From IMG/VR virus record IMGVR_UViG_2585427787_000008: a stretch of 19,832 nucleotides of DNA. One strand, 5' to 3'. Below are positions 1 to 19,832 of the stretch, piece by piece. Below the pieces are notes generated by a model. The model made no database searches, was not told the origin of the DNA, and saw nothing but the letters and a program-made list of their open reading frames with translations. This DNA is from a virus. Lineage: Duplodnaviria; Heunggongvirae; Uroviricota; Caudoviricetes. Both the position numbers and the translations under genes were made by a program. How positions within the stretch are numbered: the first letter of the stretch is position 1; each line of letters begins with the position of its first letter.

Positions 1-317
1 ATGACAGGCTCCGGAAGACGGTTGTTGCGCACGTATTCGGTGAACGCACTATGGCGACGCTGGGGCGTCTTATGAGCCTGCTGTCACCCTTTGACGTGGT
101 GATATGGATGACGGATGGCTGGCCGCTGTATGAATCCCGCCTGAAGGGAAAGCTGCACGTAATCAGCAAGCGATATACGCAGCGAATTGAGCGGCATAAC
201 CTGAATCTGAGGCAGCACCTGGCACGGCTGGGACGGAAGTCGCTGTCGTTCTCAAAATCGGTGGAGCTGCATGACAAAGTCATCGGGCATTATCTGAACA
301 TAAAACACTATCAATAA
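1..317 (+). CDS. insB: IS1 transposase InsB, C-terminal part (5'-truncated by window edge; reading frame begins at position 3)
   Basis: Translation ...[104 protein letters not shown] is the IS1 InsB C-terminus. Confidence 0.85.
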
Positions 318-332
318 GTTGGAGTCATTACC
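1..332 (+). mobile_element. IS1 insertion sequence, partial (3' portion; window starts inside the element); right terminal inverted repeat ends ...GTTGGAGTCATTACC at 332
   Basis: Sequence matches the IS1 insB 3' region and right IR as recalled; insB frame ends ...[10 protein letters not shown] at 315..317. Basis: seen in sequence plus established knowledge of IS1. Confidence 0.9.
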
Positions 333-542
333 CAGGATCTGTATCCGGGATGGTTTGTAAGTTACAAGGCCGATGTTGTGGAACCTGGTTCGAAATATGC
401 AAGTGCGCGCTACTCCAGGGGGAATGGGGCATTACCAAAAGACTGCCGAATAATCTTCTTCCATGGCAAACCGCGACCGCGTGAAGTGTCAGAGGATTGG
501 CTTCCTCTCATTAGCGCGTTTTTTGAGCAAGAATCAGAATAA
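333..542 (+). pseudogene. Possible 3' remnant of a gene disrupted by the IS1 insertion (70 stop-free codons with no start codon, ending ...FFEQESE* at 540..542)
   Basis: The frame is open from the first base after the IS1 right end to TAA at 540..542 and has no in-frame ATG. A 70-codon open run by chance is only moderately unlikely (about 0.03), so this is tentative. Confidence 0.3.
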
Positions 543-543
543 T

Positions 544-560: not shown

Positions 561-568
561 ATATTTTT

Positions 569-609: not shown

Positions 610-623
610 TTACAAGGTGCACT

Positions 624-842
624 ATGTGGCCATTCCGACGGAAATATCACTACTGGCTGATCGCCTTTGTTACACCGACCGGCGGTATCAGGCATGTCAT
701 CACCAGGTATCGCAACAAGAGACTCACCTTAGCCAGAATTTTACAGGCTGCCATAGGTGAGGGACTGGATACAAATTGCGTAGTCCTTCCTCCTTCATAC
801 TTAGGAAAAATGACCGAAGCACAAGCTAATACGGAACTTTGA
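624..842 (+). CDS. Hypothetical small protein (72 aa), possibly C1-controlled
   Basis: ATG at 624 with an AGGTG Shine-Dalgarno-like motif 4 nt upstream, directly downstream of an operator-like site. No recognisable domain; it competes with an overlapping minus-strand ORF (650..871). Confidence 0.25.
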   Translation: MWPFRRKYHYWLIAFVTPTGGIRHVITRYRNKRLTLARILQAAIGEGLDTNCVVLPPSYLGKMTEAQANTEL

Positions 843-990
843 AATGAGCACTTCAGCATAAAAGCAATCAATCGAAAATGTATCTATCCCTGATGTCCTG
901 AATGCCGGTATCCCGGCCATTATCCAGAACATCCGGGCCGCGCAACGCCGCGTTAGTTGTGATGACCTCACAGCACGTTTTTTTGATAAT

Positions 991-2106: not shown

Positions 2107-2127
2107 TAGTTACAGTGTCACTTTTAA

Positions 2128-2159
2128 TGCTGGTGGAGTGCGCCCACCAGCATTTTTTT
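2128..2159 (+). terminator. Rho-independent terminator (9-bp stem TGCTGGTGG / CCACCAGCA, 7-nt loop, then T7)
   Basis: Perfect GC-rich hairpin 2128..2152 followed by TTTTTTT 2153..2159, 22 bp after the stop of the 371-aa ORF. Confidence 0.7.
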
Positions 2160-2178
2160 CGTCCAATGAGGAGGGCAT

Positions 2179-2685
2179 TTGAGTATTTTCAATAAACATG
2201 CACACCAGGAACGTCCGTATATCGTCATAGTCGATATTGATGGAACAATATCAGAGGCAACTGAAGACAGACTGCATTTGCTTCCGCCACCAGGTAAAGG
2301 TGCATTAACAAAGGACTGGAACGAGTTTAATCTCGCCTGTGACACCGATACTCCAATCACTCCAGTTATTGATATGGTGCGCCAGTTATTTAACGTTTAC
2401 ACGGTCTGGTTTGTAACCGGGCGCTGTGAGATCGCAAGGGATAAAACACGAGCCTGGCTGCGGAAGTACGTAACAAACGGGGCTGAGCCTTTGCTATCTA
2501 TGCGTCCTGCCACCGATGACAGAAATGACGGCCCAGCAAAGATTGATCTCCTTAAGAAAATTGGTATAAGCAAAATTGCGTTCGCGCTGGAAGATAAGAT
2601 TGAAGTGGCGCGTGTTTTCAGGAGGCACGGCGTGCTTACGTTAATGGTCAGGGAGTATGAAAATGCGCTTCTTCATCAACAATAA
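2179..2685 (+). CDS. Hypothetical HAD-superfamily-like hydrolase/phosphatase (168 aa)
   Basis: TTG start with a strong SD (GAGGAGG, 4-nt spacer). N-terminal IVIVDIDGT matches HAD motif I (DxDGT); VWFVTGR, a downstream Lys and a C-terminal acidic pair (ALEDK) fit motifs II-IV. Fold assignment is inference from motifs only. Confidence 0.55.
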   Translation: MSIFNKHAHQERPYIVIVDIDGTISEATEDRLHLLPPPGKGALTKDWNEFNLACDTDTPITPVIDMVRQLFNVYTVWFVTGRCEIARDKTRAWLRKYVTNGAEPLLSMRPATDDRNDGPAKIDLLKKIGISKIAFALEDKIEVARVFRRHGVLTLMVREYENALLHQQ

Positions 2686-2701
2686 TTGCTCTAATAAATC
2701 A
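2685..2701 (+). promoter_or_regulatory. C1 operator-like site ATTGCTCTAATAAATCA (15/17), with candidate -35 TTGCTC and -10 TAAAAC (2709..2714) reading rightward
   Basis: Operator consensus match starting at the stop codon of the 168-aa ORF; the same block architecture as at 533..583. Confidence 0.6.
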
Positions 2702-2722
2702 TGATTTTTAAAACAGGGAAAG

Positions 2723-2755
2723 TGAAAATAAAAACATGCCGCAAGGCGCGGCATG
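2723..2755 (-). terminator. Intrinsic terminator oriented for minus-strand transcripts (8-bp stem CATGCCGC / GCGGCATG, loop AAGGC, then a U-run in minus-strand sense)
   Basis: Plus strand shows an A-tract 2723..2734 then the hairpin 2735..2755, which on the minus strand is hairpin plus UUUUUAUUUU. It lies downstream of hsdR in minus orientation. Confidence 0.5.
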
Positions 2756-2783
2756 TATCCAATCAATCACAGGAGCTGAAAAT

Positions 2784-2870
2784 ATGAACACGGCATTCAA
2801 AATCATTATGGCCGCGATCTATTTCTGGCTGTTCTCTATCACTTTTGGCGGCATCGTCGCGCATGGGTAA
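2784..2870 (+). CDS. Candidate small hydrophobic peptide, 28 aa (MNTAFKIIMAAIYFWLFSITFGGIVAHG), single predicted transmembrane helix
   Basis: ATG at 2784 preceded by AGGAG with a 7-nt spacer, downstream of the operator-like promoter at 2685..2714. Too short for the ORF track; the call rests on SD quality and context only. Confidence 0.3.
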   Translation: MNTAFKIIMAAIYFWLFSITFGGIVAHG

Positions 2871-2949
2871 GGGGAGTATATTAGCCATTTGAAACCCCAC
2901 GGTCTCTTGCGGGTTTAATTAAGAACCCGCAAGAAAAACACGAATTGGG

Positions 2950-5900
2950 CTATATTTTTCCGCCTACGCCTTTAAACTTCTCAATAAACGAGACGATTTT
3001 CTGGAAAACTGCCTGTTTTTTCGTTTTATATTGCGGATTCAACGGACTAAGTTTTGGTAATGTTTCGTTTAATTCTGTGCCATTTTCTGTGGCATATTCG
3101 CGTTTTAAAGACGTGCGAATATAGCGTTTTGCTGCATCTTCATTGAGATTTTCTTCTTTTATCAATGCTTCTGCTTCACGTTGCTGTTCGCGTTGAGCAA
3201 ACGTAAAGAATGCGTCAATGATGCTGGCTTTGTCCGGTAAATCATCCAGGTTCGTTTGCTGAATAAAATCGACCACCAGGCCCTCTTTAGCACGGTTCCC
3301 TAGGCTTGAACGAATTAAGCGTTTAACCTCTTCGATCATTTCGCCCTTGCCTTTATTTTGTCTGTTGTGTTCGAAAATCAGTCCAAGGATATAATCCAGG
3401 TTTATTTCCTGAGACTTCAGCAAATCGACCTCAAAAACTACGTCATCCCAGTCAGTGGTTGATTTCTCTTTTTTCTCAGCTTCTTTCTCACGGCGCTGCC
3501 AGTCGCGAATATCGTTATAGGCAGAACGATAATCCTGAATCTTGCGATCAGCAGGGAGACGAATTGTTTGCAATTCAGCGAGCTTTTCATCATCCACATA
3601 ATGTTCTGCTTTGAATTTTTCTACTGCAACAGGATCGCTAAGATCGATTTGTTGCAGGGCTTTCAGCGTGGCAAATTCATCATAGTTTTGCAGGATGTTC
3701 TCGGCACGCAGGTATTCACCAAACAGTTTAACGAAGTCTTTCTTCTCTTTTTCACTTTCAATACTGGCAGGGTCAGGGAACCGTTGTTCCAGTTCTGAAA
3801 CTACTGCCATAAAGCCGCGCTTAGCTTCACCAGTGGCAGCATCAGTAAAGCCTTCCATATACTCTGCATAACTCTTTTCTAAAACCACATTTTTGGTGTT
3901 TTTGTCACCAAACAGCGTTATGGCATCAATAGTTGAGCGTTCCAGATCCCGGAAAGTGACGATATTACCGAAGGTTTTAGTTGCATCATAAATACGGTTG
4001 GTGCGGGAAAATGCCTGCATCAAGCCGTGAAAACGCAGGTTTTTATCGACGAATAGCGTGTTCAATGTTGGAGCATCGAAGCCAGTTAAAAACATCCCCA
4101 CGACAATTAACAGATCGATATCCTGATTTTTAACCCGTTGGGCTAAATCGCGATAGTAGTTCTGAAAACCGTTACCGTCGGTGCTGAAGTTAGTTTTAAA
4201 ATAGCTGTTATACTCACGAATTGCAGCGTCAAGAAACTCTTTAGCACTGCTGTCCATTGCGCTGGTATCAAAAGTTTCATCGGAAATTTCACCAATGGCA
4301 TTTTGTTCTTCATTGGCAGCAAAGGAGAAGATTGTCGCAACACGCAGCGGTTTATAGGTAGCCGATTTATTAGCTGCTTCCTCTTGTAACCGTTTAAACG
4401 CCGCGTAATAGGCTTTTGCAGCATCCACGCTGCTCACTGCCAACATAGCATTAAAACCTTTTGAGCCAGGGAAGGTGCGGTGGGTTTTCTGGCGGAAATT
4501 ATTCAGAATATATTGCGTGATTTCCTGTATACGCATGGGATGAAGAAACGCCTGCTGATTTTCAGCCGCACTTAGTTTTTTCTCGTCAGTTTCTGTCTCT
4601 AAAGACTTAAACTGTGGCCGCACATCGTTGTAGTCCACCTTGAATTTGAGCACTTTTTCATCACGAATCGCATCGGTAATTACATACGAATGCAATTCAC
4701 GACCAAATACGCTGGCGGTCGTTTCTGAGCCTAAGGCATTTTCCGGGAAAATAGGGGTGCCGGTAAAACCAAACTGATAATAGCGTTTGAATTTCTTCTT
4801 CAGGTTTTTCTGCGCTTCTCCAAACTGGCTGCGGTGACATTCATCAAATATAAACACCACTTGCTGATTGTATACAGGCAGGTCGCTTTCTGCTTTCATC
4901 AGGTTATTGAGTTTCTGAATAGTAGTGACGATAATTTTGTTATCGTCCTTATCCAGATTTCGTTTAAGGCCTGCGGTATTTTCCGAGCCGTTGACGCTGT
5001 CTGGCGAAAAACGCTGATATTCCTTCATGGTCTGGTAATCGAGGTCTTTCCTGTCGACCACAAAGAAGACTTTATCAATAAAGTCCAGCTCTGTTGCCAG
5101 ACGCGCGGCTTTAAAGCTGGTGAGGGTTTTACCAGAACCGGTAGTGTGCCAGATATACCCACCGCTTTCCGGTTTTGACCAGTTCTTCGCTGTAAAGGAA
5201 CTCTTAATTTTCCACAGAATGCGCTCGGTGGCGGCAATCTGGTACGGTCGCATCACCAGTAGCGTCTGACTACTGTCAAAAACGCTGTAGTTCACCAGAA
5301 CATTCAGCAGAGTATGTTTCTGGAAAAAGGTAGCGGTAAAGTCTTTGAGGTCTTTAATCAGCGTATTGTCTGATTTCGCCCAATTCATGGTGAAGTCAAA
5401 ACTGTTTTTATCGCGCTTTGTCGTGTTGGCAAAATAACGGGTATCGGTGCCGTTAGAAATGACAAACAGTTGCAGATACTTAAACAGGGAATTTTCGTTG
5501 TTAAAACTCTCTTTACTGTAACGATGTATCTGGTTGAAAGCCTCACGAATCGCCACCCCGCGTTTTTTTAGTTCGATTTGCACCAGCGGTAAACCATTAA
5601 CCAGGATCGTGACGTCATAACGGTTAGCATGAGAACCCGTCTGTTCAAACTGCTGGATAATCTGCACCTTATTGCGCATGAGATTCTTTTTATCTATCAA
5701 ATAGATGTTCTCAAGTCGCCCGTCGTCAAAAATAAAGTCGCAGATATAGTCGATATGGATTTTACGGGTTTTATCCAGAATACCATCGCTGGGGTTGTCC
5801 AGATACTGCTCCGTGAAGCGCCGCCACTCGCTGTCATTAAACATCACACCATTGAGGCTCTGAAGCTGTTCCCGAACATTAGACAGCATTGCCGACTGTG

Positions 5901-6066
5901 ATTTTACGGAAATAAATTCATAACCCTGATTCCGCAGGTCCTGAATCAGTTCACGTTCCAGGTCCGATTCGCTCTGGTAGCTGTCGCTTGTTTGCTCAGC
6001 TTTGATGTACTTATCAAGGACGATAAAGTTATTGGATTCAGCAATGGTGTGTGTTTGATGAGTCAT
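2950..6066 (-). CDS. hsdR: Type I restriction enzyme R subunit HsdR (1038 aa), EcoR124-like (family IC)
   Basis: Walker A TGSGKT and DEAH-type FDECHRSQ helicase motifs; N-terminal PD-(D/E)xK-like nuclease residues (YDVTIL ... QIELKK). Length matches EcoR124I HsdR as recalled. A 122-bp gap from hsdS fits a separate hsdR promoter. Confidence 0.93.
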
Positions 6067-6187
6067 AGCGCATCCTTTGTGCCGCCTGGCAAGGGCCGGA
6101 AAGGCGTTAAGAGTGACTTCCGGCGCGTAAAAAATAGTCTATATACAGACCGGATGTTACGATGGTTCGGTCTGTAATAATGGTCAA

Positions 6188-7425
<1,238 letters not shown>

Positions 7426-7429
<4 letters not shown>

Positions 7430-8988
7430 TTCTGCACCTCGCAGCCTTCAATTTCAGCCACAATCGCATCAATATCTTTACGCAACTGGTCGATTTTGCT
7501 GACCGTGGTTTTCAGCTCAGCATTTAGCTCAGCAATATCGATAGTTTCGCGGTTATCTTTCACTTCTACATAGCTGCTCACTGACAGGTTATAGTCATTC
7601 GCGACAACGGCCTCAAACGCGACAGATTTTGCCAGATGGGCAACATCTTCTTTGCTGGAAAATACCTGCATAATTTTTTCGATATGGGCATCGGTCAGGA
7701 TGTTGTTGTTAGTCTCTTTTTTGAACAGTTCGCTGGCGTCAATAAACTGAACTTTGGTATCCGTTTTATGTTTAGACAGCACCAGAATATTTACGGCAAT
7801 GGTGGTGCCAAAGAACAGGTTCGGTGCCAGTGAAATCACGGTTTCGACATAGTTATTGTCAACCAGATACTGACGGATTTTCTGCTCCGCGCCGCCACGG
7901 TAAAAAATGCCCGGGAAGCAGACAATCGCAGCACGACCTTTGGCAGAAAGATAGTTCAGCGCATGTAATACAAACGCAAAGTCAGCTTTGGATTTGGGGG
8001 CCAGAACGCCAGCCGGGGCAAAACGTTCATCGTTAATCAGCGTCGGGTCATCGCTGCCAATCCATTTCACCGAATACGGCGGGTTAGAAACGATGGCATC
8101 AAACGGGTTTTCATCTCTGAAGTGCGGCTCAGTCAGCGTATTGCCCAACTTGATATCAAACTTGTCGTAGTTGATGTTGTGCAAAAACATGTTCATACGC
8201 GCCAGGTTATAGGTCGTATGGTTGATCTCCTGACCAAAAAAGCCTTCTTCGATGATATGGTCATCAAACTGTTTTTTAGCCTGCAACAACAGCGAACCGG
8301 AACCTGCTGCCGGGTCGTAGATTTTGTTAACGTGGGTCTGGCCGTGCATTGCCAGTTGTGCAATCAGCTTAGAGACGTGCTGCGGTGTAAAGAACTCGCC
8401 GCCGGACTTACCGGCATTCGCCGCATAGTTAGAAATCAGGAACTCATAGGCATCGCCGAACAGGTCAATCTGATGTTCGTTGAAGTCGCCAAGTTTTAAT
8501 CCTTCAACCCCTTTCAGAACCGCGGCCAGGCGGGTATTTTTATCCTTAACGGTGTTACCCAGGCGGTTACTGGTGGTATCGAAATCAGCAAACAAACCTT
8601 TGATGTCAGCTTCTGAAGGGTAACCGTAAGCAGAACTTTCGATAGCAACGAAGATGCTGTTTAAATCTGCATTCAGTCTGTCATTGGTATTTGCTTTCGC
8701 AGCTACGTTGCAGAAAAGCTGACTTGGGTAGATGAAGTAGCCTTTGGTTTTGATGGCATCGTCTTTAATGTCATCAGTAATTACGCTGTCATCCAGTTTC
8801 GCATAACAGATGCTGTCATCACCGGCTTCAATATAGCTGGAAAAATTTTCGCTGATAAAACGGTAGAAAAGCGCGCCCAGAACGTATTGCTTAAAATCCC
8901 ATCCATCGACCGAACCTCTGACATCGTTAGCAATTTGCCAGATTTGACGATGAAGCTCTGCACGTTGTTGAATACTTGTCATTTTCAT
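7426..8988 (-). CDS. hsdM: Type I R-M N6-adenine DNA methyltransferase subunit HsdM (520 aa)
   Basis: AdoMet-binding motif [10 protein letters not shown] and catalytic NPPY motif (SNPPYS); N-terminus [17 protein letters not shown] resembles EcoR124I HsdM as recalled; first gene of the minus-strand operon. Confidence 0.93.
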
Positions 8989-9127
8989 CCACTTATTTCA
9001 GGCTTATGTAATTGGATGTGATTCTACAGCAACTTGGATGCTTTAGCAGTTCGGACATTAGGCTACGAATGACCTGCCTAGAGGTTTGTTAAGCCGCAAA
9101 GTGCTGGTGCTTTATGCCTGTGAAGTT

Positions 9128-9160
9128 TATAATTGTGTACACATAACGAGTACACGAGGT
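9128..9160 (+). promoter_or_regulatory. phd-doc promoter/operator region: -10 TATAAT (9128..9133), palindrome GTGTACAC (9135..9142), second half-site GTACAC (9150..9155), SD GAGG
   Basis: A consensus -10 hexamer and palindromic sites sit immediately upstream of phd, consistent with autoregulated TA promoters. Assigning them as Phd-binding sites is inference. Confidence 0.5.
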
Positions 9161-9164
9161 ATTT

Positions 9165-9386
9165 ATGCAATCCATTAACTTCCGTACCGCGCGCGGCAAC
9201 CTTTCTGAAGTGCTCAACAATGTTGAGGCCGGGGAAGAGGTTGAAATCACCCGCAGAGGCCGTGAGCCAGCAGTAATTGTCAGCAAGGCTACTTTCGAAG
9301 CCTACAAAAAAGCGGCGCTGGATGCTGAATTTGCATCCCTGTTTGACACCCTGGACTCCACCAACAAGGAACTGGTTAACCGATAA
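9165..9386 (+). CDS. phd: Antitoxin Phd (prevents host death), 73 aa
   Basis: Protein [49 protein letters not shown]... matches P1 Phd as recalled; stop overlaps the doc start (TAATG). Confidence 0.93.
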
Positions 9387-9766
9387 TGAGGCATATATCA
9401 CCGGAAGAACTTATTGCGCTTCATGATGCGAATATAAACCGCTACGGCGGCCTGCCGGGAATGTCAGATCCAGGTAGGGCAGAGGCCATTATCGGGAGAG
9501 TTCAGGCCAGAGTTGCCTACGAAGAGATCACCGACCTTTTCGAAGTCTCCGCCACCTACCTGGTGGCTACAGCGAGAGGGCATATATTCAATGATGCCAA
9601 TAAGCGTACCGCGCTAAACAGTGCGCTGTTATTTCTACGCCGTAACGGGGTGCAGGTATTTGATTCACCTGAACTGGCAGACCTTACCGTAGGGGCTGCG
9701 ACCGGAGAGATATCTGTATCTTCTGTCGCCGACACGTTACGTAGATTGTATGGTTCCGCGGAGTAG
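9386..9766 (+). CDS. doc: Toxin Doc (death on curing; Fic-fold), 126 aa
   Basis: Protein [22 protein letters not shown]... 126 aa, translationally coupled to phd; matches P1 Doc as recalled. Confidence 0.93.
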
Positions 9767-9770
9767 ATTA

Positions 9771-9950
9771 ATGGCACGTAAATACAACAAATTGTCCCGT
9801 GAAGCGTTAAAGATGCTTCTTGATGGCGTGAGTCGCCGCGAGGTAAAGCAATACCTGGTTGGTAAGCAAATTGGTGCCAGGACAGCTATTGCTGTGTTAT
9901 GCCGTCAGGAAATGGTTGTGCTTAAACAGAGAATGCCGGGCAGCAGATAA
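9771..9950 (+). CDS. pdcA: Small protein downstream of doc (59 aa from ATG 9771; the ORF track gives an alternative start at 9750 inside doc), PdcA-like
   Basis: ATG 9771 lies 4 nt after the doc stop with GGAG 9 nt upstream. The name follows the P1 gene order recalled (phd-doc-pdcA-pdcB-lpa); function unknown. Confidence 0.45.
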   Translation: MARKYNKLSREALKMLLDGVSRREVKQYLVGKQIGARTAIAVLCRQEMVVLKQRMPGSR

Positions 9951-9977
9951 AGCCCAATCAGTGATTAAAGGTGTGAT

Positions 9978-11021
9978 GTGAAAGCCGTAATTACTCCCTT
10001 TGTACAGAAAGAGCTTGGCCTCGCCACGTTCAAAGTGGATCAGGAGGTCAGAAAGCTGGTGGAGGCTGGCCGTAAATTTATTATGGAGCCGGTGCCGCGT
10101 GAGTTAATCGAGCACATGGAAGACGGCCTCGTTGTTACCGAGCAAACCATGGCAACAAATGAGGCGTTGCAGCCGTTTTTTAACAGCGATGAACTGTTTC
10201 GCCGTATTGGTGGAATTGACGCGCTGGTGGCGTGGTTGCGTAGGAAAGAGGGTCAATGCCAGGCCGCAGATCGTAGTTGGTGTGACAACCATATTGTCCA
10301 CGCTGAACGAGACAATAGCGCGGTGTTGTTGTGCTGGCATCACGATAACCATTACCGGATGCGTGGTTTTAATGAGCTGAAAGAAACGCTGCACAATAAT
10401 CGCGTTAACTGGATACTGGATGTCGCCCGTCAGGAAATGGGCCTTTCAAATAGCCATGATTTAAGTATTCAGGAGCTGTGCTGGTGGGCTTTCATGCGCA
10501 ACATGATGCACCTGATGCCGGAAGAAGTCTGCCGCATATCAATAAATAAGATGAAGGCTACTCCGCAGGATAGCGGACCTCTGAAAGAGGCGGATATTCG
10601 CCCGTATGACGATCGCGCTACAGCATATGTTCAGATGATGGAAGAACGCGCCGCGCCGATGCGTGCAAAAGTATGCCCTGTGGATGTTGACTCCGACCCA
10701 GGTATGGCGCATTTCAAGATACCAAAACTTCAATCGCTAAAATTGCCCGAGTACATGGACTTTGTGGCTTCCCGTCCATGCTGTGGCTGTGGAGCTGCGG
10801 GAGCTGGCGCTCACATTACGCCTTATATCGTTCGTCATAGTCGATTATGCGCGCATGACATTTATGCTATTCCTCTGTGCCAGTCATGCCAGCGTGATAT
10901 TGAGCGTGACCGCGATAATTGGGAGAAGACGCACGGTAGGCTGGCGATGCATCAACGATTGTTCTTTGATTACGCGCTTGGAGTCGGCGCTATCACAAGT
11001 CATTCGTCGAGTGTTAGATAA
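9978..11021 (+). CDS. pdcB: PdcB-like protein (347 aa), Cys/His-rich, function unknown
   Basis: GTG start with AAAGGTG SD-like motif; long ORF in the P1 position of pdcB. Contains C/H clusters (CWHHDNHY; CCGCG...H...CAH...CQSCQ). Confidence 0.7.
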
Positions 11022-11022
11022 A

Positions 11023-11039
11023 ATTGCTCTAATGTATTG
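11023..11039 (+). promoter_or_regulatory. C1 operator-like site ATTGCTCTAATGTATTG (14/17) upstream of lpa
   Basis: Consensus match directly after the pdcB stop and about 70 bp upstream of lpa; consistent with C1 control of the late activator gene. Confidence 0.6.
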
Positions 11040-11109
11040 CTATTTCTTTAATCGAGGGTATTATATTCGACGTTGATTAGTTGACATGGGCTAATCAGTA
11101 GGTGACAGG

Positions 11110-11562
11110 ATGTTACTTAACTGGCAGGGACGCCACTTCATGGAAATAAATCACTCACGAATAACATCGTACGAGATTGCGGATTACATGATCCGCACTA
11201 AATCTCTTCTATCAGCGAAAGAACTCGCAGCAATTCTTGAAAAGGAATACCCGCATCTGGATGTCGATAAGCGCGATGTTTATCTGCGCTTAAAGGCTAT
11301 CGCTGTGTCTAAGTATTCGTCTGTTTTGATTGATGACAGTACACGCCCACGTAGATTTCAGATCCACTCTCTGAATCCTGAATTCTTTCGCCGTAGCCGC
11401 GCTCCGCGCCGGTTTGATGAAAAACTCCAGAACGAACTCTATATGACGCAGGACGAAAAGGAACGCCGGGAGCACCAGCCTTGGGTAATGGCGCGTCAAC
11501 TTTTCAATAGGGTGGCCCGTCAGCACCGTCATTACGGTAATGCCACATCCGCACGTATCTGA
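11110..11562 (+). CDS. lpa: Late promoter activator Lpa (gene 10)-like, 150 aa
   Basis: Position between pdcB and pacA with an upstream C1 operator, as in P1; identity is assigned by synteny and size. Confidence 0.7.
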   Translation: MLLNWQGRHFMEINHSRITSYEIADYMIRTKSLLSAKELAAILEKEYPHLDVDKRDVYLRLKAIAVSKYSSVLIDDSTRPRRFQIHSLNPEFFRRSRAPRRFDEKLQNELYMTQDEKERREHQPWVMARQLFNRVARQHRHYGNATSARI

Positions 11563-11647
11563 TTGATTGCTTGCCCGTTCCGGGCCTTTTGACATGTGAC
11601 TTTCGTTACCCTCGCGTCAAAAAGAGTTTTTACGAAAGGAAGCATAA

Positions 11648-12841
11648 GTGACCTGGGACGATCACAAGAAGAATTTTGCTCGCCTGGCGCGAGATGGTGG
11701 TTACACCATCGCACAGTATGCCGCCGAGTTTAATCTTAACCCTAATACCGCACGTCGTTATCTCCGTGCCTTCAAAGAAGACACCAGGACTGCGGACAGC
11801 CGCAAGCCAAATAAGCCAGTCAGGAAGCCACTAAAAAGCATGATCATTGATCACTCTAATGATCAACATGCAGGTGATCATATTGCGGCTGAAATAGCGG
11901 AAAAACAGAGAGTTAATGCCGTTATCAGTGCCGCAGTCGAGAATGCGAAGCGCCAAAATAAGCGCATAAATGATCGTTCAGATGATCATGACGTGATCAC
12001 CCGCGCCCACCGGACCTTACGTGATCGCCTGGAACGCGACACCCTGGATGATGATGGTGAACGCTTTGAATTCGAAGCTGGCGATTACCTGATAGATAAC
12101 GTTGAAGCGCGGAAGGCCGCGCGCGCTATGTTGCGTCGGTCCGGGGCCGATGTTCTGGAAACCACTCTTCTTGAAAAGTCTCTTTCTCATCTCCTTATGC
12201 TGGAGAACGCCAGGGATACGTGTATTCGCCTGGTGCAGGAAATGCGCGATCAGCAAAAAGACGATGATGAAGGTACTCCGCCTGAATACCGTATCGCGAG
12301 CATGCTAAACAGCTGTTCCGCGCAGATAAGCAGCCTGATCAACACCATTTACAGCATCCGGAATAACTATCGAAAAGAAAGCCGGGAGGCGGAAAAGCAC
12401 GCTTTGTCTATGGGGCAAGCTGGCATTGTTAAGCTGGCATACGAACGAAAGCGTGAAAATAACTGGTCAGTGCTGGAAGCAGCTGAATTCATCGAGGCGC
12501 ATGGCGGGAAAGTGCCGCCCCTGATGCTGGAGCAAATCAAAGCCGATCTGCGTGCTCCTAAGACCAATACCGATGATGAGGAAAGGCAAACAGCCGTCGG
12601 TGGCCCTTCTCTTGAAGATCTGGACAAAGTTGCGCGAGAACGGGCCGCCAACCGCCGCGCCGATGCCGCATTGTGGATTGAGCAGCGTAGGGAAGAAATC
12701 GCCGATATCGTTGATACAGGCGGTTATGGAGATGTTGATACTGAAGGTGTATCAAACGACCCATGGCTGGAACAAGACCTGGACGAAGACGAGGAGGAAG
12801 ACGAAGAAGTTACCCGCAAGCTATACGGGGATGATGATTAA
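11648..12841 (+). CDS. pacA: Pacase (terminase) subunit PacA, 397 aa
   Basis: GTG start with AAGGA SD; 397 aa as in P1 PacA; contains the pac site internally; acidic C-terminal tail; stop overlaps the pacB ATG. Confidence 0.9.
11841..11999 (+). other. P1 pac packaging site: seven hexamers TGATC(A/G) in a 4 + 3 arrangement, each carrying a Dam GATC
   Basis: Hexamers at 11841, 11848, 11860, 11875 and at 11971, 11984, 11994, separated by about 90 bp, inside pacA. This matches the known pac architecture. Confidence 0.8.
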
Positions 12842-14325
12842 TGGCCAGAAGTTGCGTAACGGATCCACGTTGGCGCGAGCTGGTGGCGCTATATCGTTAT
12901 GACTGGATTGCGGCCGCTGATGTTTTGTTCGGCAAAACACCTACCTGGCAGCAGGATCTGATTATTGAGTCTGTGCAGGAACAGGGTAGCAAGACATCTG
13001 TTTCGTCTGGTCACGGTACCGGAAAATCAGACATGACTTCTATCATGATCATGTTGTTCATAATCATGTATCCCGGTGCCCGCGCCATTATCGTTGCGAA
13101 CAAAATTCAGCAGGTAATGACCGGTATTTTCAAGTACATCAAGATAAACTGGGCTACTGCCACCAGCCGTTTTCCATGGCTTGCTGATTATTTTGTTCTG
13201 ACAGAAACCGCTTTCTATGAGGTTACTGGTAAAGGTGTATGGACTGTAGTGCCGAAGGGCTTTCGTCTGGGAAGTGAAGAAGCTCTCGCCGGTGAACACG
13301 CAGATCATCTTCTGTATATTATCGATGAAGCCTCCGGTGTCAGTGATAGAGCTTTCGGTATCATCACCGGTGCTCTTACCGGACAGGATAACCGCATCTT
13401 ATTACTGTCACAGCCTACACGCCCAAGCGGCTATTTCTACGATACTCACCATAAACTGGCCAAGCGTCCTGGTAACCCTGATGGCGTTTATACGGCGATC
13501 ACGCTTAACAGTGAGGAATCACCGCTGGTAACGCCAGCATTTATCAAAATGAAGCTGGCGGAGTACGGCGGGCGCGATAACCCTATGTACATGATTAAGG
13601 TACGCGGCCTATTCCCTAAATCACAGGATGGCTTCCTTCTTGGACGTGATGAGGTTGAACGTGCAACGCGGCGGAAAGTCAAGATTGCCAAAGGATGGGG
13701 CTGGCTTGCATGTGTAGACGTTGCTGGTGGTACGGGAAGGGATAAGTCCGTTATCAATATCATGATGGTGTCCGGCCAGCGAAACAAACGCCGTGTAATC
13801 AACTATCGAATGCTGGAATACACAGACGTTACAGAAACGCAGCTTGCCGCCAAAATTTTCGCAGAATGTAATCCTGAGCGATTCCCAAATATCACCATAG
13901 CGATAGACGGCGATGGCCTGGGTAAAGCAACAGCGGATCTGATGTACGAGTATTATGGTATTACCGTACAGCGTATACGCTGGGGTAAAAAGATGCATAG
14001 CCGTGAGGATAAGAGCCTGTACTTTGATAAACGTGCTTATGCCAACGTTCAAGCCGCAGAGGCCGTAAAATCTGGTCGTATGAGACTGGATAAGGGTAAT
14101 GAAACTATTGAGGAAGCGTCGAAAATCCCTGTAGGGATTAACTCCGCAGGTCAATGGAAGGTGATGAGTAAGGAGGATATGAAGAAAAAACTCAACCTGC
14201 ACTCACCAGACCATTGGGATACATATTGTTTCGCTATGCTGGCGGATTATGTTCCCCAGGATGAAGTGCTTAGCGTCGAAGACGAAGCGCAGGTTGATGA
14301 AGCTCTGGCATGGCTTAATGAATAA
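12841..14325 (+). CDS. pacB: Pacase (terminase) large subunit PacB, 494 aa
   Basis: ATG overlapping the pacA stop; 494 aa as in P1 PacB; follows pacA. Confidence 0.9.
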
Positions 14326-14349
14326 CTCATTGACCATGCCGGATAGAAA

Positions 14350-15201
14350 CTATTGCGCGCTTTCGGGGTTGTCGTTTACTGGCTGCCCCTTCTTAGTTTT
14401 ACGGCTGCGCGTAACTGATGCGGCTGATTTGACCTTTTTCTCTTCGCGAGTGATGGCAATTTGTTTTTTTACATTTTCAATATCTGCCAGGCGATATATT
14501 TTTGCCTGCGGCCAGCGGTCGCAGATGATCGGTTCTATAGAGTCATAAAGGCTAAATTTTGCTTTCTCGAATTCACCGTTGATGATGATTCCATCACGGA
14601 GAGTTTCATCGCAGATAAACACACCACACAGCGGCACATGGTAACTAACTGATTTACCATCATTGTAGTTAGGGCTACTGGAAATGTAATGGACGCGCAA
14701 CATTGTTTCGCTAAAGCCGTGTACACGCATACGGAATTTTTCATCCTCCGGGTACTGCTTCATTAGCTCTTTTGTTGCTTCCAGGTTCTCTATGTATTTC
14801 GCACTGTGCTCATTGATCCCCGCGCTTTTCTGGATGCGAATGTCCTTATCAATCAGATGAATAATGCGGCCAGCGGTCATGTTGACGCTGTTCACAGCCT
14901 CTGTCTGATAAGTTGTAACCTTACGCACACCGCGAAGGATGTTAGGCACTGGATATAAAATAGTCTTTGGGATATTGAGGTCTGGGTACTGTTCCAGTTC
15001 CCGCGCCATTAAAGTCCATTTATCAATTTCAGCCTGAATGCTGTCAGTTTCTTTGAACGGTAGAACGACAACCGGGCGTACAGGACGACCGTCGCTGGCT
15101 GTATCAACGTGTTGGGCGCGTGCAACAGCTTTTTTTAGAAAGAGATCCCTGAAGCTGACGAACTCCTGGTACAGTTGTTCGCCGTAGACATAATTTATCA
15201 T
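14350..15201 (-). CDS. c1: C1 repressor of lysogeny, 283 aa
   Basis: Protein MINYVYGEQLYQEFVSFRDLFLKK..., 283 aa, matches P1 C1 as recalled; strong SD (GGAGGAGG) upstream on the minus strand; convergent with pacB. Confidence 0.9.
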   Translation of the reverse strand: MINYVYGEQLYQEFVSFRDLFLKKAVARAQHVDTASDGRPVRPVVVLPFKETDSIQAEIDKWTLMARELEQYPDLNIPKTILYPVPNILRGVRKVTTYQTEAVNSVNMTAGRIIHLIDKDIRIQKSAGINEHSAKYIENLEATKELMKQYPEDEKFRMRVHGFSETMLRVHYISSSPNYNDGKSVSYHVPLCGVFICDETLRDGIIINGEFEKAKFSLYDSIEPIICDRWPQAKIYRLADIENVKKQIAITREEKKVKSAASVTRSRKTKKGQPVNDNPESAQ

Positions 15202-15295
15202 TGATCCTCCTCCAGAATTGACATGGTCAATAACGCCCGGCTGAGAAAACCGGTCATTACTGACCTATATTATAGAGGGATCAAACAAAAATAAT

Positions 15296-15312
15296 AGATT
15301 TATTAGTGCATT
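15296..15312 (-). promoter_or_regulatory. Weaker C1 operator-like site (AATGCACTAATAAATCT, 14/17) between coi and c1
   Basis: Minus-strand match carrying the CTAATAAAT core; it overlaps the coi stop. Confidence 0.35.
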
Positions 15313-15521
15313 TATTGTGAGTCTAACTGGTTAGTTGCCATGAGATATTCGATTGTGTCAGTGAGGTCATCCAGGTCGTCTTGGGTGATGCGGTACTCCT
15401 GATTGGATATCTTTGAGTAGTGTTCAGCAATGGCGCGGGCAGCGTCGGTTTCGGCAGGGTCTACAGATAAAGCGTTAGAGCAATGTCTAACGTCGTCGAT
15501 GGTTGGTTGAATGAAAGCCAT
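15312..15521 (-). CDS. coi: Coi (C1 inactivator), 69 aa
   Basis: 69-aa acidic protein immediately upstream of c1 on the same strand, GAGG SD with 7-nt spacer; position and size as for P1 coi. Confidence 0.8.
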   Translation of the reverse strand: MAFIQPTIDDVRHCSNALSVDPAETDAARAIAEHYSKISNQEYRITQDDLDDLTDTIEYLMATNQLDSQ

Positions 15522-15759
15522 AATTATGCCTCACTGTATTGACAACACAGAGCCTGAAGCTCTGACCTACTGTTTCACCCATGATCCATGCTGGGGTAAT
15601 CTAACAACATTGCGCTGTGTGTAAGATGAGCAATGCATAGCTGTAATGCCGTTGTATAAGGTTTCCCTGTTTGCTCATTTCCTTCTGAGCCGCTCTACAA
15701 CGCTGAAGACACATTAAATAGTGAATCCAAAGTCGTATTACGTAACGTCGGCAAAACTA

Positions 15760-15776
15760 TAATTTATTAGAGCAAT
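15760..15776 (-). promoter_or_regulatory. C1 operator (ATTGCTCTAATAAATTA, 16/17) upstream of coi-c1
   Basis: Near-perfect consensus on the minus strand in the region upstream of coi. Confidence 0.7.
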
Positions 15777-15842
15777 TGTCAAACAACTATGAAAAACAAT
15801 CCAGTTTTTAGCTGGTGGAGTGGGATTTTTCTCTCAAAATTT

Positions 15843-15859
15843 ATTGCTCTAATAATTCT
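15843..15859 (+). promoter_or_regulatory. C1 operator-like site ATTGCTCTAATAATTCT (15/17)
   Basis: Consensus match in inverted orientation relative to the site at 15760..15776, 66 bp away. Confidence 0.65.
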
Positions 15860-15902
15860 TGATTTTTGTGCGCAGCTGGACGTAAACTCCTCTTCGGACC
15901 TA

Positions 15903-15936
15903 ATAACTTCGTATAGCATACATTATACGAAGTTAT
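15903..15936. other. loxP recombination site (ATAACTTCGTATA-GCATACAT-TATACGAAGTTAT)
   Basis: Exact 34-bp loxP: two 13-bp inverted arms around the 8-bp asymmetric spacer, about 410 bp upstream of cre. Confidence 0.97.
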
Positions 15937-16117
15937 CTTAAGGGTTATTGAACATGATCAATTTACCTGTAAATCCATACAGTTCAATACCTTATCAGGT
16001 CAAATAGTGATCATTTGATCAAGGTTGCGCTACGTAAAATCTGCGAAATGTTGGCAGTGTTAGTGCTCCAGATTTCGCGTAGCGCACTTAGCACCACCAA
16101 TCAATCAGAGGTGAAAA

Positions 16118-16339
16118 ATGGGATATTCAGCTGCTAAAGTGTCCACTCATATTGAGCTTGAGAAAAACCGTGGTTACTGGCGGGCAAAAGGGTTTGATTG
16201 TGATAGTTGTCAACTGTCATTATCGCGCGGTGAAGAGAAAATAGAACGCACGCGCGGTCGCTGGCGTTTCTATGACGAGAACCATAAACAGGTAAAGGCA
16301 GAGCCGATCCTGTACACTTTACTTAAAACCATTATCTGA
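16118..16339 (+). CDS. Hypothetical 73-aa protein between loxP and cre
   Basis: ATG with AGAGGTG SD; ends 8 bp before the cre ATG (possible coupling); protein-like composition. Not recalled as a named P1 gene. Confidence 0.4.
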   Translation: MGYSAAKVSTHIELEKNRGYWRAKGFDCDSCQLSLSRGEEKIERTRGRWRFYDENHKQVKAEPILYTLLKTII

Positions 16340-16346
16340 GTGTTAA

Positions 16347-17378
16347 ATGTCCAATTTACTGACCGTACACCAAAATTTGCCTGCATTACCGGTCGATGCA
16401 ACGAGTGATGAGGTTCGCAAGAACCTGATGGACATGTTCAGGGATCGCCAGGCGTTTTCTGAGCATACCTGGAAAATGCTTCTGTCCGTTTGCCGGTCGT
16501 GGGCGGCATGGTGCAAGTTGAATAACCGGAAATGGTTTCCCGCAGAACCTGAAGATGTTCGCGATTATCTTCTATATCTTCAGGCGCGCGGTCTGGCAGT
16601 AAAAACTATCCAGCAACATTTGGGCCAGCTAAACATGCTTCATCGTCGGTCCGGGCTGCCACGACCAAGTGACAGCAACGCTGTTTCACTGGTCATGCGG
16701 CGGATCCGAAAAGAAAACGTTGATGCCGGTGAACGTGCAAAACAGGCACTAGCGTTCGAACGCACTGATTTCGACCAGGTTCGTTCACTCATGGAAAATA
16801 GCGATCGCTGCCAGGATATACGTAATCTGGCATTTCTGGGGATTGCTTATAACACCCTGTTACGTATAGCCGAAATTGCCAGGATCAGGGTTAAAGATAT
16901 CTCACGTACTGACGGTGGGAGAATGTTAATCCATATTGGCAGAACGAAAACGCTGGTTAGCACCGCAGGTGTAGAGAAGGCACTTAGCCTGGGGGTAACT
17001 AAACTGGTCGAGCGATGGATTTCTGTCTCTGGTGTGGCTGATGATCCGAATAACTACTTGTTTTGCCGGGTCAGAAAAAATGGTGTTGCCTCGCCATCAT
17101 CCACCAGCCAGCTATCAACTCGCGCCCTGGAAGGGATTTTTGAAGCAACTCACCGATTGATTTACGGGGCTAAGGATGACTCTGGTCAGAGGTACCTGGC
17201 CTGGTCTGGACACAGTGCCCGTGTCGGAGCCGCGCGAGATATGGCCCGCGCCGGAGTTTCAATACCGGAGATCATGCAAGCTGGTGGCTGGACCAACGTA
17301 AATATTGTCATGAACTATATCCGTAATCTGGATAGTGAAACGGGGGCAATGGTGCGCCTGCTGGAAGATGGTGATTAG
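16347..17378 (+). CDS. cre: Cre site-specific tyrosine recombinase, 343 aa
   Basis: Protein MSNLLTVHQNLPALPVDATSDEVRKNLMDMFRDRQAFSEHTWKMLLSVCRSWAAWCKLNNRKWFPAEPEDVRDYLLYLQARGLAVKTIQQHLGQLNMLHRRSGLPRPSDSNAVSLVMRRIRKENVDAGERAKQALAFERTDFDQVRSLMENSDRCQDIRNLAFLGIAYNTLLRIAEIARIRVKDISRTDGGRMLIHIGRTKTLVSTAGVEKALSLGVTKLVERWISVSGVADDPNNYLFCRVRKNGVASPSSTSQLSTRALEGIFEATHRLIYGAKDDSGQRYLAWSGHSARVGAARDMARAGVSIPEIMQAGGWTNVNIVMNYIRNLDSETGAMVRLLEDGD is recognisably Cre (near-identical to the sequence recalled), with loxP upstream. Confidence 0.97.
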   Translation: MSNLLTVHQNLPALPVDATSDEVRKNLMDMFRDRQAFSEHTWKMLLSVCRSWAAWCKLNNRKWFPAEPEDVRDYLLYLQARGLAVKTIQQHLGQLNMLHRRSGLPRPSDSNAVSLVMRRIRKENVDAGERAKQALAFERTDFDQVRSLMENSDRCQDIRNLAFLGIAYNTLLRIAEIARIRVKDISRTDGGRMLIHIGRTKTLVSTAGVEKALSLGVTKLVERWISVSGVADDPNNYLFCRVRKNGVASPSSTSQLSTRALEGIFEATHRLIYGAKDDSGQRYLAWSGHSARVGAARDMARAGVSIPEIMQAGGWTNVNIVMNYIRNLDSETGAMVRLLEDGD

Positions 17379-17395
17379 CCGTCAACGCATAATAA

Positions 17396-17412
17396 ATTGC
17401 TCTAATTATTTG
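17396..17412 (+). promoter_or_regulatory. C1 operator-like site ATTGCTCTAATTATTTG (14/17)
   Basis: Consensus match 18 bp after the cre stop and 17 bp before the next ORF. Confidence 0.6.
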
Positions 17413-17428
17413 ATATTTATGGTGGCAT

Positions 17429-17740
17429 ATGAGAAAGGATTTCAACATCGACGGAAAATATGTAGTGCTGTCTGTAAGCACTAATATTCAGTCGCCAGCC
17501 GTCATTGTCACTGTAAAGCTGAGCGATAGAATGCCTGATATTGACTCAATATCCGTTGCGTTTCCTGTCAAAAGTATGCGTAGTGCTGAACATTTCGTAA
17601 TGAATGCCACCGAGGAAGAAGCACGGCGCGGTCTTGGTAAAGTGATGTCTGAGTTTGTCGAATTTCTGGGGCTCGTTAACAAAGCCCTCACAATCAGTTC
17701 AGCAAGGTCCAAAGCGTTAACAGCTTCCATGATGAAATAA
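17429..17740 (+). CDS. Hypothetical 103-aa protein downstream of cre (possibly the P1 cra homolog)
   Basis: ATG with GGTGG 4 nt upstream; protein-like composition. Preferred over the overlapping minus-strand ORF 17488..17799, which needs a TTG start and is low-complexity. Identity by position only. Confidence 0.5.
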   Translation: MRKDFNIDGKYVVLSVSTNIQSPAVIVTVKLSDRMPDIDSISVAFPVKSMRSAEHFVMNATEEEARRGLGKVMSEFVEFLGLVNKALTISSARSKALTASMMK

Positions 17741-17766
17741 AAAAAAGCCTGGCAAGGAGCCAGGCT
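17741..17766 (-). terminator. Intrinsic terminator oriented for minus-strand transcripts (stem GCCTGGC / GCCAGGC, loop AAGGA, then U7 in minus sense)
   Basis: Plus strand reads A7 (17741..17747) then a GC-rich hairpin (17748..17766); on the minus strand this is hairpin plus UUUUUUU. No U-tract follows in plus sense. Confidence 0.5.
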
Positions 17767-17872
17767 GCACAAAAGAGCGGGTTTGTATTCCGCATCCAAT
17801 CAATCAAGAAGGAGTATAGCACACAGGTACTGAAGTGAAAAAATGTGATTCGCGATAAACAAAATATCTACC

Positions 17873-17896
17873 ATTGCTCTAATTGATTGCTATAAT
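17873..17896 (+). promoter_or_regulatory. C1 operator-like site ATTGCTCTAATTGATTG (17873..17889, 14/17) overlapping an extended -10 element TGCTATAAT (17888..17896); candidate C1-repressed ref promoter
   Basis: Consensus match plus a TGnTATAAT element; a second degenerate operator-like copy overlaps at 17885..17901. Confidence 0.6.
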
Positions 17897-17954
17897 TGAG
17901 CCGCAGTTTTTGTCAACTACGAAGACGTGCCATTACTTAACTCCTTGACATCAT

Positions 17955-17981
17955 AGGCGGCCATTAGGCCGCCTTTTTTTT
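17955..17981 (+). terminator. Intrinsic terminator (stem GGCGGCC / GGCCGCC, loop ATTA, then T8) ending 6 nt before the ref start codon
   Basis: Perfect GC-rich hairpin followed by TTTTTTTT at 17974..17981. Confidence 0.7.
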
Positions 17982-17987
17982 GACCAT

Positions 17988-18548
17988 ATGAAAACAATCG
18001 AACAAAAAATTGAACAGTGCCGCAAGTGGCAGAAGGCAGCCAGAGAACGAGCGATCGCTCGGCAACGGGAGAAGTTGGCTGATCCGGTCTGGCGAGAATC
18101 TCAATATCAGAAAATGCGAGATACTATCGACCGCCGTATCGCTAAACAGAAAGAGCGCCCACCAGCCAGCAAAACGCGGAAAAGCGCTGTAAAAATAAAA
18201 TCTCGTGGCTTGAAGGGGAGAACACCAACGGCGGAGGAACGGCGCATCGCCAATGCTCTTGGCGCTCTCCCCTGCATTGCCTGCTATATGCATGGAGTAA
18301 TATCTAATGAGGTGTCTCTGCACCATATCGCTGGTCGTACCGCGCCGGGTTGTCATAAAAAGCAATTGCCACTTTGTAGATGGCACCACCAGCATGCAGC
18401 ACCGGCTGAAGTAAGAGCAAAATACCCCTGGCTGGTCCCTGTTCATGCCGATGGTGTGGTTGGAGGCAAGAAAGAATTCACCCTGCTGAACAAGTCAGAG
18501 ATGGAGTTACTGGCTGACGCCTATGAGATGGCAAACATCATGCACTAA
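17988..18548 (+). CDS. ref: Ref (recombination enhancement function; HNH-type endonuclease), 186 aa
   Basis: 186 aa with a basic N-terminal region and a C-terminal Cys/His HNH-like core (CIACYMHG...HH...CRWHH); position after cre as in P1; upstream C1 operators. Confidence 0.85.
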   Translation: MKTIEQKIEQCRKWQKAARERAIARQREKLADPVWRESQYQKMRDTIDRRIAKQKERPPASKTRKSAVKIKSRGLKGRTPTAEERRIANALGALPCIACYMHGVISNEVSLHHIAGRTAPGCHKKQLPLCRWHHQHAAPAEVRAKYPWLVPVHADGVVGGKKEFTLLNKSEMELLADAYEMANIMH

Positions 18549-18553
18549 TAAAT
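18537..18553 (+). promoter_or_regulatory. Weak C1 operator-like site (CATGCACTAATAAATAT, 13/17) overlapping the ref stop codon
   Basis: Shares the TGCACTAATAAAT core with the site at 15296..15312; upstream of the next ORF. Tentative. Confidence 0.3.
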
Positions 18554-18736
18554 ATATTATTTTTAATGATAAATGATTGACAACTGACAAGTGACTTCAG
18601 TCAGAATCATCACACGCCCGGTACGGATGGATCCCTTTTCAAATATTCCATGGACGGCACAGTCTGAGTACCGGGCGCTACCTTCAGTTGTATTGCTAAG
18701 CCGCCGCTGGTGGCTTTTCTTTTTTGTAGGGGCGCT

Positions 18737-19333
18737 ATGGATAAGAAAATATGCGTTGTTTCGATGAGCGTCGGCAAACCGGCGTCAATGACTGCTGCAT
18801 GGATCAATAACGAGCTGATAATGGCTGAGCGGACCAGCTACCCTGAACGCCGCCGCGACATGGAACTCCAGCTGCTGCGCGAATTGCGAGAAAAAGAGGA
18901 AAAGGGTTTTATCGTGCTGGTGGAAGAGGAAAACAGCTTTATTACTGGTCGAGTTGGCCAGCGTGTAAGGTTGCGCGATCCCTTCATGAACGGCAGGCCG
19001 GTACTAATTGAGGCAATGCAGATTTATAAGGAGCTGGAACGCCAGAAAGCAATCAAGTTACCGCGCAAGGAATCCGGCAAATACATCCTCCACCAAAGCA
19101 TCTTCGATTCCGAACACGATAAAAAAGGCGATGAATTTTTCAACATCAATTGGAGCGAAATAACGACAGAGCATGTTCTGACGTTACTCTGTTGCTTTGC
19201 GACGGAATACAACAACGTTGCCAGCGCCGACTACATCAGGGCAATGGCTTGTGAAGTGGATAGTCGTGATGACTCATCGCTGATAGCGTCATATATAAAC
19301 ATCATCGGTGATGCTGCCAACTTACTGATTTAG
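18737..19333 (+). CDS. ORF downstream of ref, interrupted by IS1: 190 native codons (ATG 18737, AGGGG SD) then 8 codons and a stop supplied by the IS1 left end (GDAANLLI*); possibly the P1 mat homolog, truncated
   Basis: The frame runs continuously from 18737 into the IS1 left inverted repeat, which begins at 19307; the stop at 19331..19333 lies inside IS1. The ORF track's earlier start at 18710 lacks an SD. Confidence 0.5.
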   Translation: MDKKICVVSMSVGKPASMTAAWINNELIMAERTSYPERRRDMELQLLRELREKEEKGFIVLVEEENSFITGRVGQRVRLRDPFMNGRPVLIEAMQIYKELERQKAIKLPRKESGKYILHQSIFDSEHDKKGDEFFNINWSEITTEHVLTLLCCFATEYNNVASADYIRAMACEVDSRDDSSLIASYINIIGDAANLLI

Positions 19334-19361
19334 TGTATGATGGTGTTTTTGAGGTGCTCCA

Positions 19362-19637
19362 GTGGCTTCTGTTTCTATCAGCTGTCCCTCCTGTTCAGCT
19401 ACTGACGGGGTGGTGCGTAACGGCAAAAGCACCGCCGGACATCAGCGCTATCTCTGCTCTCACTGCCGTAAAACATGGCAACTGCAGTTCACTTACACCG
19501 CTTCTCAACCCGGTACGCACCAGAAAATCATTGATATGGCCATGAATGGCGTTGGATGCCGGGCAACTGCCCGCATTATGGGCGTTGGCCTCAACACGGT
19601 TTTACGTCACTTAAAAAACTCAGGCCGCAGTCGGTAA
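19362..19637 (+). CDS. insA: IS1 InsA (transposition inhibitor / DNA-binding), 91 aa
   Basis: Protein [91 protein letters not shown] is IS1 InsA. Confidence 0.9.
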
Positions 19638-19832
19638 CCTCGCGCATACAACCGGGCAGTGACGTGATTGTCTGCGCGGAAATGGACGAACAGTGGGGCT
19701 ACGTCGGTGCTAAATCACGTCAGCGCTGGCTGTTTTACGCGTATGACAGGATACGGAGGACAGTTGTTGCGCACGTATTCGGTGAACGCACTATGGCGAC
19801 GCTGGGGCGTCTTATGAGCCTGCTGTCACCCT
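19556..19832 (+). CDS. insB: IS1 insB' frame (3'-truncated by window edge); expressed as an InsAB' fusion by -1 frameshift at A6C (19613..19619)
   Basis: -1 frame relative to insA is open from ATG 19556 to the window end and reads ...[50 protein letters not shown]. Confidence 0.6.

Follow-up and report, generated by a model that had tools for sequence, protein, structure and literature searches.

In phage P1, the genes around the maturation control gene mat run in the order cra-cre-c8-ref-mat-res-mod-lxc-ulx-darB (PMC10695390), and the res-mod pair has been described as variable region 1 of the P1-like phage-plasmids (PMC9603915). The annotated P1 record places the C1 operator Omat at 2628-2645 and the promoters Pmat/LPmat at 2666-2696. 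The resident IS1 of P1 lies at 22626-23393 on the minus strand, between isaA and isaB and ~13 kb beyond mod. These features provide the frame for a mat gene that meets an IS1 in the window, i.e. the whole stretch of 19,832 nucleotides analysed here, which exact look-up of the encoded fusion protein identified as the entire draft contig JORH01000161.1 of the E. coli assembly GCA_000713095.1. The initial annotation had given the P1 order as ref-mat-res-mod-IS1; the ref-mat-res-mod part of that order is correct, but the P1 IS1 does not stand beside mod.

The window contains an 18,974-bp unique segment (333-19306), bracketed by direct IS1 copies that each cut a P1 gene, with the order 'pmgQ-pmgR-pmgS-pap-[hsdR-hsdS-hsdM]-phd-doc-pdcA-pdcB-lpa-pacA-pacB-c1-coi-lox-cra-cre-c8-ref-mat (Table 1). 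Here the order cre-c8-ref-mat is that of P1, and positions 17900-19257 match P1 ref-mat at 97% in BLAST against phage records. The gene after ref, which had been called mat-like, can be identified as mat by its position and its match to P1. As in P1, it sits directly after ref, behind a C1 operator and a late promoter, and the 207 nt at 18530-18736 are identical to P1 2619-2826 except for one G missing from a G-run. That run reads GGGG at 18729-18732 versus GGGGG in P1 (region 18627-18739), and the shorter run therefore places the upstream mat ATG annotated in P1 out of frame in the window. The P1 record gives mat 250 aa from this upstream ATG, whereas most relatives encode 213 aa from an ATG matching 18737. 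This comparison favours the 213-aa form as the conserved Mat and suggests that the mat annotation in P1 extends too far at the N-terminus. The program-made list of open reading frames opens the frame of the window at GTG 18710; the relatives annotate their 213-aa protein from ATG 18737.

Table 1. Positions of features in the window and the basis of each assignment
Feature	Position	Strand	Basis or remark
Second IS1, nt 437-768, with IRR at 310-332	1..332	+	contig starts inside; overlaps right end by 90 nt
'pmgQ, codons 165-233 and stop	333..542	+	window 333 = nt 493 of 702-nt gene, NZ_CP027133.1
hsdR	2950-6066	minus	2270 bits end to end vs PDB 2w00
cre	16347-17378		
c8	17429-17740		
ref	17988-18548		
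mat regulatory region (C1 operator Omat, Pmat, late promoter LPmat)	18539..18607	+	position from annotated P1 record
mat', first 190 native codons; P1-type maturation control gene, DUF2971-lineage allele	18737..19306	+	translation, allele alignment
IS1 nt 1-526, cut by contig end, mosaic variant	19307..19832	+	
IS1 left terminal inverted repeat IRL, GGTGATGCTGCCAACTTACTGAT	19307..19329	+	23-mer ends complete 768-bp IS1 copies in relatives
IS1-encoded tail of fusion ORF (GDAANLLI and TAG)	19307..19333	+	translation
insA, 91 aa, GTG start, intact	19362..19637	+	A6C frameshift motif AAAAAAC at 19613-19619
insB' partial, runs off contig end	19556..19832	+	PF03400 DDE_Tnp_IS1 match

The reading frame from ATG 18737 continues through 190 native codons, the last of which encode ...SYINII, and then passes directly into the IS1 left inverted repeat at 19307, as the initial annotation had described; translation also confirms its statement that IS1 supplies the last eight codons and the stop (TAG, 19331-19333). 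IS1 has entered mat by transposition between codons 190 and 191 and turns its IRL to the gene; the encoded fusion, Mat(1-190)+GDAANLLI, is without the final 23 residues of Mat. The intact protein with identical first 190 residues is 213 aa long and occurs on at least 1000 contigs. The gene does not natively end at about 190 codons, and the suspicion that its native C-terminus is missing was well founded, with 23 codons absent from the window. In an alignment of eight mat alleles, residues 1-170 are almost invariant, the last ~43 vary, and Mat ends in a conserved VPxGxLTGKxN(Y/I)(F/L) motif; in the window, residues 191-213, including VPxGxLTGKxN, are replaced by the eight IS1-encoded residues. 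The window Mat is a truncated member of its family, for which no Pfam model exists.

The 198-aa fusion is on record as KEM33527.1 / WP_072005723.1 from E. coli, both at NCBI and in a Logan reassembly, and only from this strain. The exact mat/IS1 junction returned 0 matches among IMG/VR viral contigs, and searches of the phage, plasmid and complete E. coli genome collections gave no match spanning the junction in one piece, which makes the allele a singleton in the collections searched. Three unrelated draft contigs (GCA_036440835.1, GCA_026069835.1 and SRR19146172) end exactly at mat codon 190, and these ends coincide with the codon boundary where IS1 sits in the window. Their terminal bases are ...AACATAATT, plus a C in one contig, and they carry a different mat tail allele. 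Such ends may have arisen where assembly forked because co-resident alleles part right after INII (CTG... versus CGC...); an improbable reading would take codon 190 as a recurrent breakpoint, as the three unrelated contigs end there.

The sequence adjoining mat shows the marks of the IS1 family, namely ~23-bp imperfect inverted repeats, insA, an A6C -1 frameshift site, and insB' with its DDE_Tnp_IS1 domain, and matches IS1 copies at 93-98% over 526 nt (BLAST, E = 0). The reverse complement of IRR, GGTAATGACTCCAACTTATTGAT, agrees with IRL at 18 of 23 positions. Apart from single differences, this copy is identical to the common and P1 IS1 in nt 1-261 and 457-526, and 16 SNPs are clustered in nt 262-456 (window 19568-19762). 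The nine bases before the element, AACATCATC (19298-19306), constitute a candidate target duplication.

The IS1 at the left end has the same orientation as the copy at mat and is of the common type, identical to the IS1 in CP098997.1 and NZ_CP156815.1. It cuts pmgQ after codon 164, removing the 5′ 164 codons; the gene concerned, reported to be nonessential, is the P1 pmgQ counterpart of the 702-nt gene of NZ_CP027133.1. Exact look-ups of the reciprocal pmgQ-IS1 fusion proteins, constructed for 8- and 9-bp duplications with an N-terminus guessed from the closest PmgQ (WP_000684873.1), returned no match. A further, independent disruption of pmgQ occurs in NZ_CP021842.1 (309-1010 of the retrieved piece), where unrelated sequence stands in place of the 5′ half of the gene and numerous stops interrupt the frame up to about codon 85.

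Both ends of the contig fall inside IS1, the right end 526 nt into the element. The terminal 90 nt at either end of the window represent one and the same IS1 stretch, so that the two ends sum to the length of one element (526 + 332 - 90 = 768 nt), but 4 mismatches in the overlap indicate that they belong to different IS1 copies. A circular 19.7-kb molecule closed through the overlapping ends was considered and rejected in light of these mismatches, the unlike 9-mers beside the two IS1 ends (CAGGATCTG vs AACATCATC), and the fact that pmgQ and mat are not neighbours. Contigs from many other assemblies begin at the same IS1 position (221 index blocks hold the partial InsB), a pattern indicating that assemblies break at this repeat systematically, and the contig ends are repeat-induced assembly breaks. 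Among the 24 longest-contig blocks of the 221 that hold the 104-aa partial InsB opening the contig, none came from GCA_000713095.1. Assembly would have halted within IS1 because the element is repeated in the genome. The far side of either IS1 therefore cannot be read from the window; a contig that ends inside an IS carries no information on the sequence beyond it.

What lay beyond mat can nevertheless be approached through the mat allele itself. Alignment to P1 mat, which the initial annotation had proposed as a check on where similarity stops, reveals that P1-likeness decays before the IS1 junction rather than at it: mismatches number 14 in 414 positions at 18737-19150, 12 in 107 at 19151-19257, and 23 in 49 at 19258-19306 (49 of 570 nt in total). 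What precedes the junction in the window is not the res-linked, P1-type form of the mat 3′ sequence. By comparison, there are 0 mismatches to pEcoUTI1e (NZ_CP049847.1) and to more than 20 other plasmids. In pEcoUTI1e and the phage record MH422554, mat runs 23 codons further and is followed by a convergent 336-aa gene (9917-10927 of the retrieved piece in pEcoUTI1e), and then by lxc, ulx and darB; res and mod are both absent. The 336-aa gene matches DUF2971 (Pfam PF11185) and the PADLOC candidate defence family PDC-S31.

To gauge this linkage, plasmid records were queried with the sequence from the point at which P1-type and window-type mat diverge through DUF2971. The query matched 90 records, 87 of which carry the window-type tail and DUF2971 contiguously over at least 80% of the query, and mat tail type is therefore a strong predictor of the neighbouring gene. 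A few records carry a mat tail without its usual cassette, and insofar as P1-like plasmids are mosaic, the tail type predicts the ancestral neighbour strongly rather than with certainty. From the sequence of its mat tail, we infer that in the plasmid lineage hit by IS1 the mat-lxc interval would have held the DUF2971 gene (a candidate for defence, PDC-S31) rather than EcoP1I res-mod. Relatives fill this interval in at least six different ways: EcoP1I-type res-mod (P1 and CP098997.1), DUF2971 (pEcoUTI1e and MH422554), a RelA/SpoT-domain gene (NZ_CP027133.1), EAL-domain genes (NZ_CP061751.1 and NZ_CP156815.1), YaaC with a hypothetical gene (NZ_CP023896.1), and glgS/DUF1449 (CP055671.1). The interval serves as a swap site for one- or two-gene cassettes, each paired with its own diverged last ~23-40 mat codons, and the 3′ tail of mat can thus mark which mat-lxc cassette a P1-like lineage carries.

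We hold with good confidence that the window presents a mat::IS1 allele, located where a short-read contig breaks off, and that this allele belongs to a P1-like phage-plasmid carried by a single E. coli strain. As to what followed the transposition, we incline, somewhat cautiously, towards a simple insertion, in which another contig would hold the rest of mat and the cassette downstream of it, with a target duplication of 8-9 bp. Such an insertion predicts a far junction consisting of IS1-IRR followed by AACATCATC and AAGAAAACTCAAATTATGGG...; with a 9-bp duplication, ...AAGTTGGAGTCATTACC, AACATCATC and AAGAAAACTCAAATTATGGGATGC would be read in succession; a 'AACATCATC-AAGAAAACTCAAATT' junction would likewise be expected. 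Among four IS1 copies compared in or next to the interval in complete relatives (CP098997.1, in res; NZ_CP061751.1, in mat at about codon 125; NZ_CP156815.1; and CP122701.1), the first three show the 8-9 bp duplications of a simple insertion.

The intact target duplications of these three copies argue against the main alternative, namely an IS1 insertion and then an IS1-mediated deletion or IS1-IS1 recombination, with loss of the DUF2971 cassette, the 3′ end of mat and perhaps further sequence, so that the second half of mat would have vanished from the strain. This sequence of events is conceivable but unlikely, although it would account for a segment bracketed by direct IS1 copies with a P1 gene cut at either side, and a cassette loss of this kind is seen in CP122701.1. 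An exact look-up for PmgQ(1-167)+IS1 tail, the product expected from a simple insertion at the other junction, gave no match, which also leans towards deletion or recombination, albeit weakly given that the N-terminal sequence was guessed. The window itself agrees with either course.

We consider it improbable that the 19-kb IS1-flanked segment is a remnant residing on the chromosome or another plasmid, as an IS1 composite unit or cointegrate fragment. The direct orientation of the flanking copies is compatible with this possibility, as is the occurrence of P1-like sequence within larger multi-replicon plasmids such as the 169-kb CP098997.1, but most relatives are plasmids of 85-100 kb, and the difference between the 9-mers CAGGATCTG and AACATCATC counts against a circle with one simple IS1 insertion. 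A related proposal, to which we give slightly less credence again, is that the direct IS1 copies delimit a 19-kb module comprising type IC restriction-modification, phd-doc addiction, pac, c1 immunity, lox-cre and ref, captured or mobilisable as an IS1 composite unit. If true, the window would represent a domesticated P1 immunity, addiction and restriction block, not a living phage-plasmid.

The initial annotation had instead proposed that an IS1-adjacent deletion took away res and mod, the type III genes, along with the 3′ end of mat, and left the type IC system as the sole restriction module. IS1 is able to delete adjacent DNA, P1 itself is ordered mat-res-mod, and in CP122701.1 the mat-lxc interval contains an IS1 that lacks a target duplication, all of which would be in keeping with this proposal. 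However, the mat tail, with 23 of 49 positions mismatched to P1 and 0 to pEcoUTI1e, belongs to a type that is joined to DUF2971, not res, in 87 of 90 records. In addition, a P1-type tail contiguous with P1 res occurs in only ~57 of ~690 mat-bearing plasmid records; the absence of res-mod is therefore the common state and needs no deletion. The geometry is also unfavourable, in that the resident IS1 of P1, 13 kb away, turns its IRR to mat, whereas IRL lies against mat in the window. A deletion that extended from an IS1 in the P1 position would join mat to IRR, contrary to this arrangement, provided that the IS1 of the ancestor was situated as that of P1. Finally, type IC and type III systems occur together in CP098997.1. 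Loss of res-mod through IS1 is not supported, and we regard it as very improbable; in a mosaic family, a missing reference cassette such as res-mod is a common state and not evidence of deletion.

The type IC system is likewise not what remained after a type III loss. The intact hsdR-hsdS-hsdM cassette (2950-8988) occupies the pap-phd interval, replacing the pmgT-humD block of P1. HsdR is nearly identical to that of EcoR124I, and the adjacent HsdS and HsdM match PADLOC type I models; by these protein matches, the cassette is assigned to type IC restriction-modification (EcoR124/EcoDXXI group). Its location has long been known, given that the GenBank notes of P1 report a match between its pap and phd-doc regions and the sequences flanking hsd of EcoDXXI and R124. 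Comparison of pEcoUTI1e, which has DUF2971 without hsd, with CP098997.1, which has both hsd and res-mod, indicates that the hsd and mat-lxc contents vary separately, and pap-phd is therefore an independent variable site.

The least tenable explanation, an assembly chimera, could draw on the contig ending in repeats and on the mosaic character of the IS1 portion, but is rejected as exceedingly improbable because mat meets IS1 precisely at base 1 of the element, which marks transposition, because the two sides share no sequence that could cause a mis-join, and because the identical fusion protein is also present in the independent Logan assembly.

Returning to the mat::IS1 allele, its consequences can be considered in light of what is known of mat in P1, where the gene is listed as essential from amber mutants; CRISPRi knock-down gave an EOP of 0.28, and the authors of that screen regard mat as a known essential gene that the screen missed (PMC10695390). 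The Mat tail lost in the window contains the only conserved motif of the variable C-terminus. Given an essential gene deprived of this motif, the prophage is probably impaired in lytic particle maturation. Conversely, phd-doc (maintenance), c1 (immunity), lox-cre and the restriction-modification cassette are intact in the window, and plasmid maintenance, immunity and type IC restriction-modification would be untouched in the mat::IS1 prophage.

Several IS insertions known from P1-like elements are comparable to that in the window. The closest resemblance is to NZ_CP061751.1 (plasmid unnamed2 of E. coli O15:H12 2273-PO3), which likewise has a same-orientation IS1 inside mat, with the result that RefSeq annotates mat as two partial pieces. 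It differs from the window in that its IS1 lies near codon 125 instead of codon 190, its downstream cassette is an EAL-domain gene, and, the record being complete, both mat halves and the 8-bp duplication CGATTCCG are visible. The ETEC4063 plasmid CP122701.1 resembles the window in carrying an IS1 in the mat-lxc interval, but its mat is intact; 268 nt without a match to P1 res are left after mat, and 13 nt separate the IS1, which lacks a target duplication, from lxc-proximal sequence. Abutting lxc without a duplication, this copy therefore represents a real IS1-associated cassette loss. In CP098997.1 and in the sequenced P1 mod749::IS5, the same variable region was struck in a type III gene, by a simple IS1 insertion into res with the 9-bp duplication AACGAATTG and by IS5 in mod, respectively. 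The resident IS1 of P1 (isaA-IS1-isaB) shares element family and backbone with the IS1 at mat in the window, but is situated ~19 kb from mat in the opposite orientation and differs from it at 17 of 526 positions. Overall, the mat::IS1 junction reflects an unremarkable insertion of IS1, at a hot spot already familiar from a much-studied element, and adds one more IS1 event to a well-known plastic region of the P1-like phage-plasmids.
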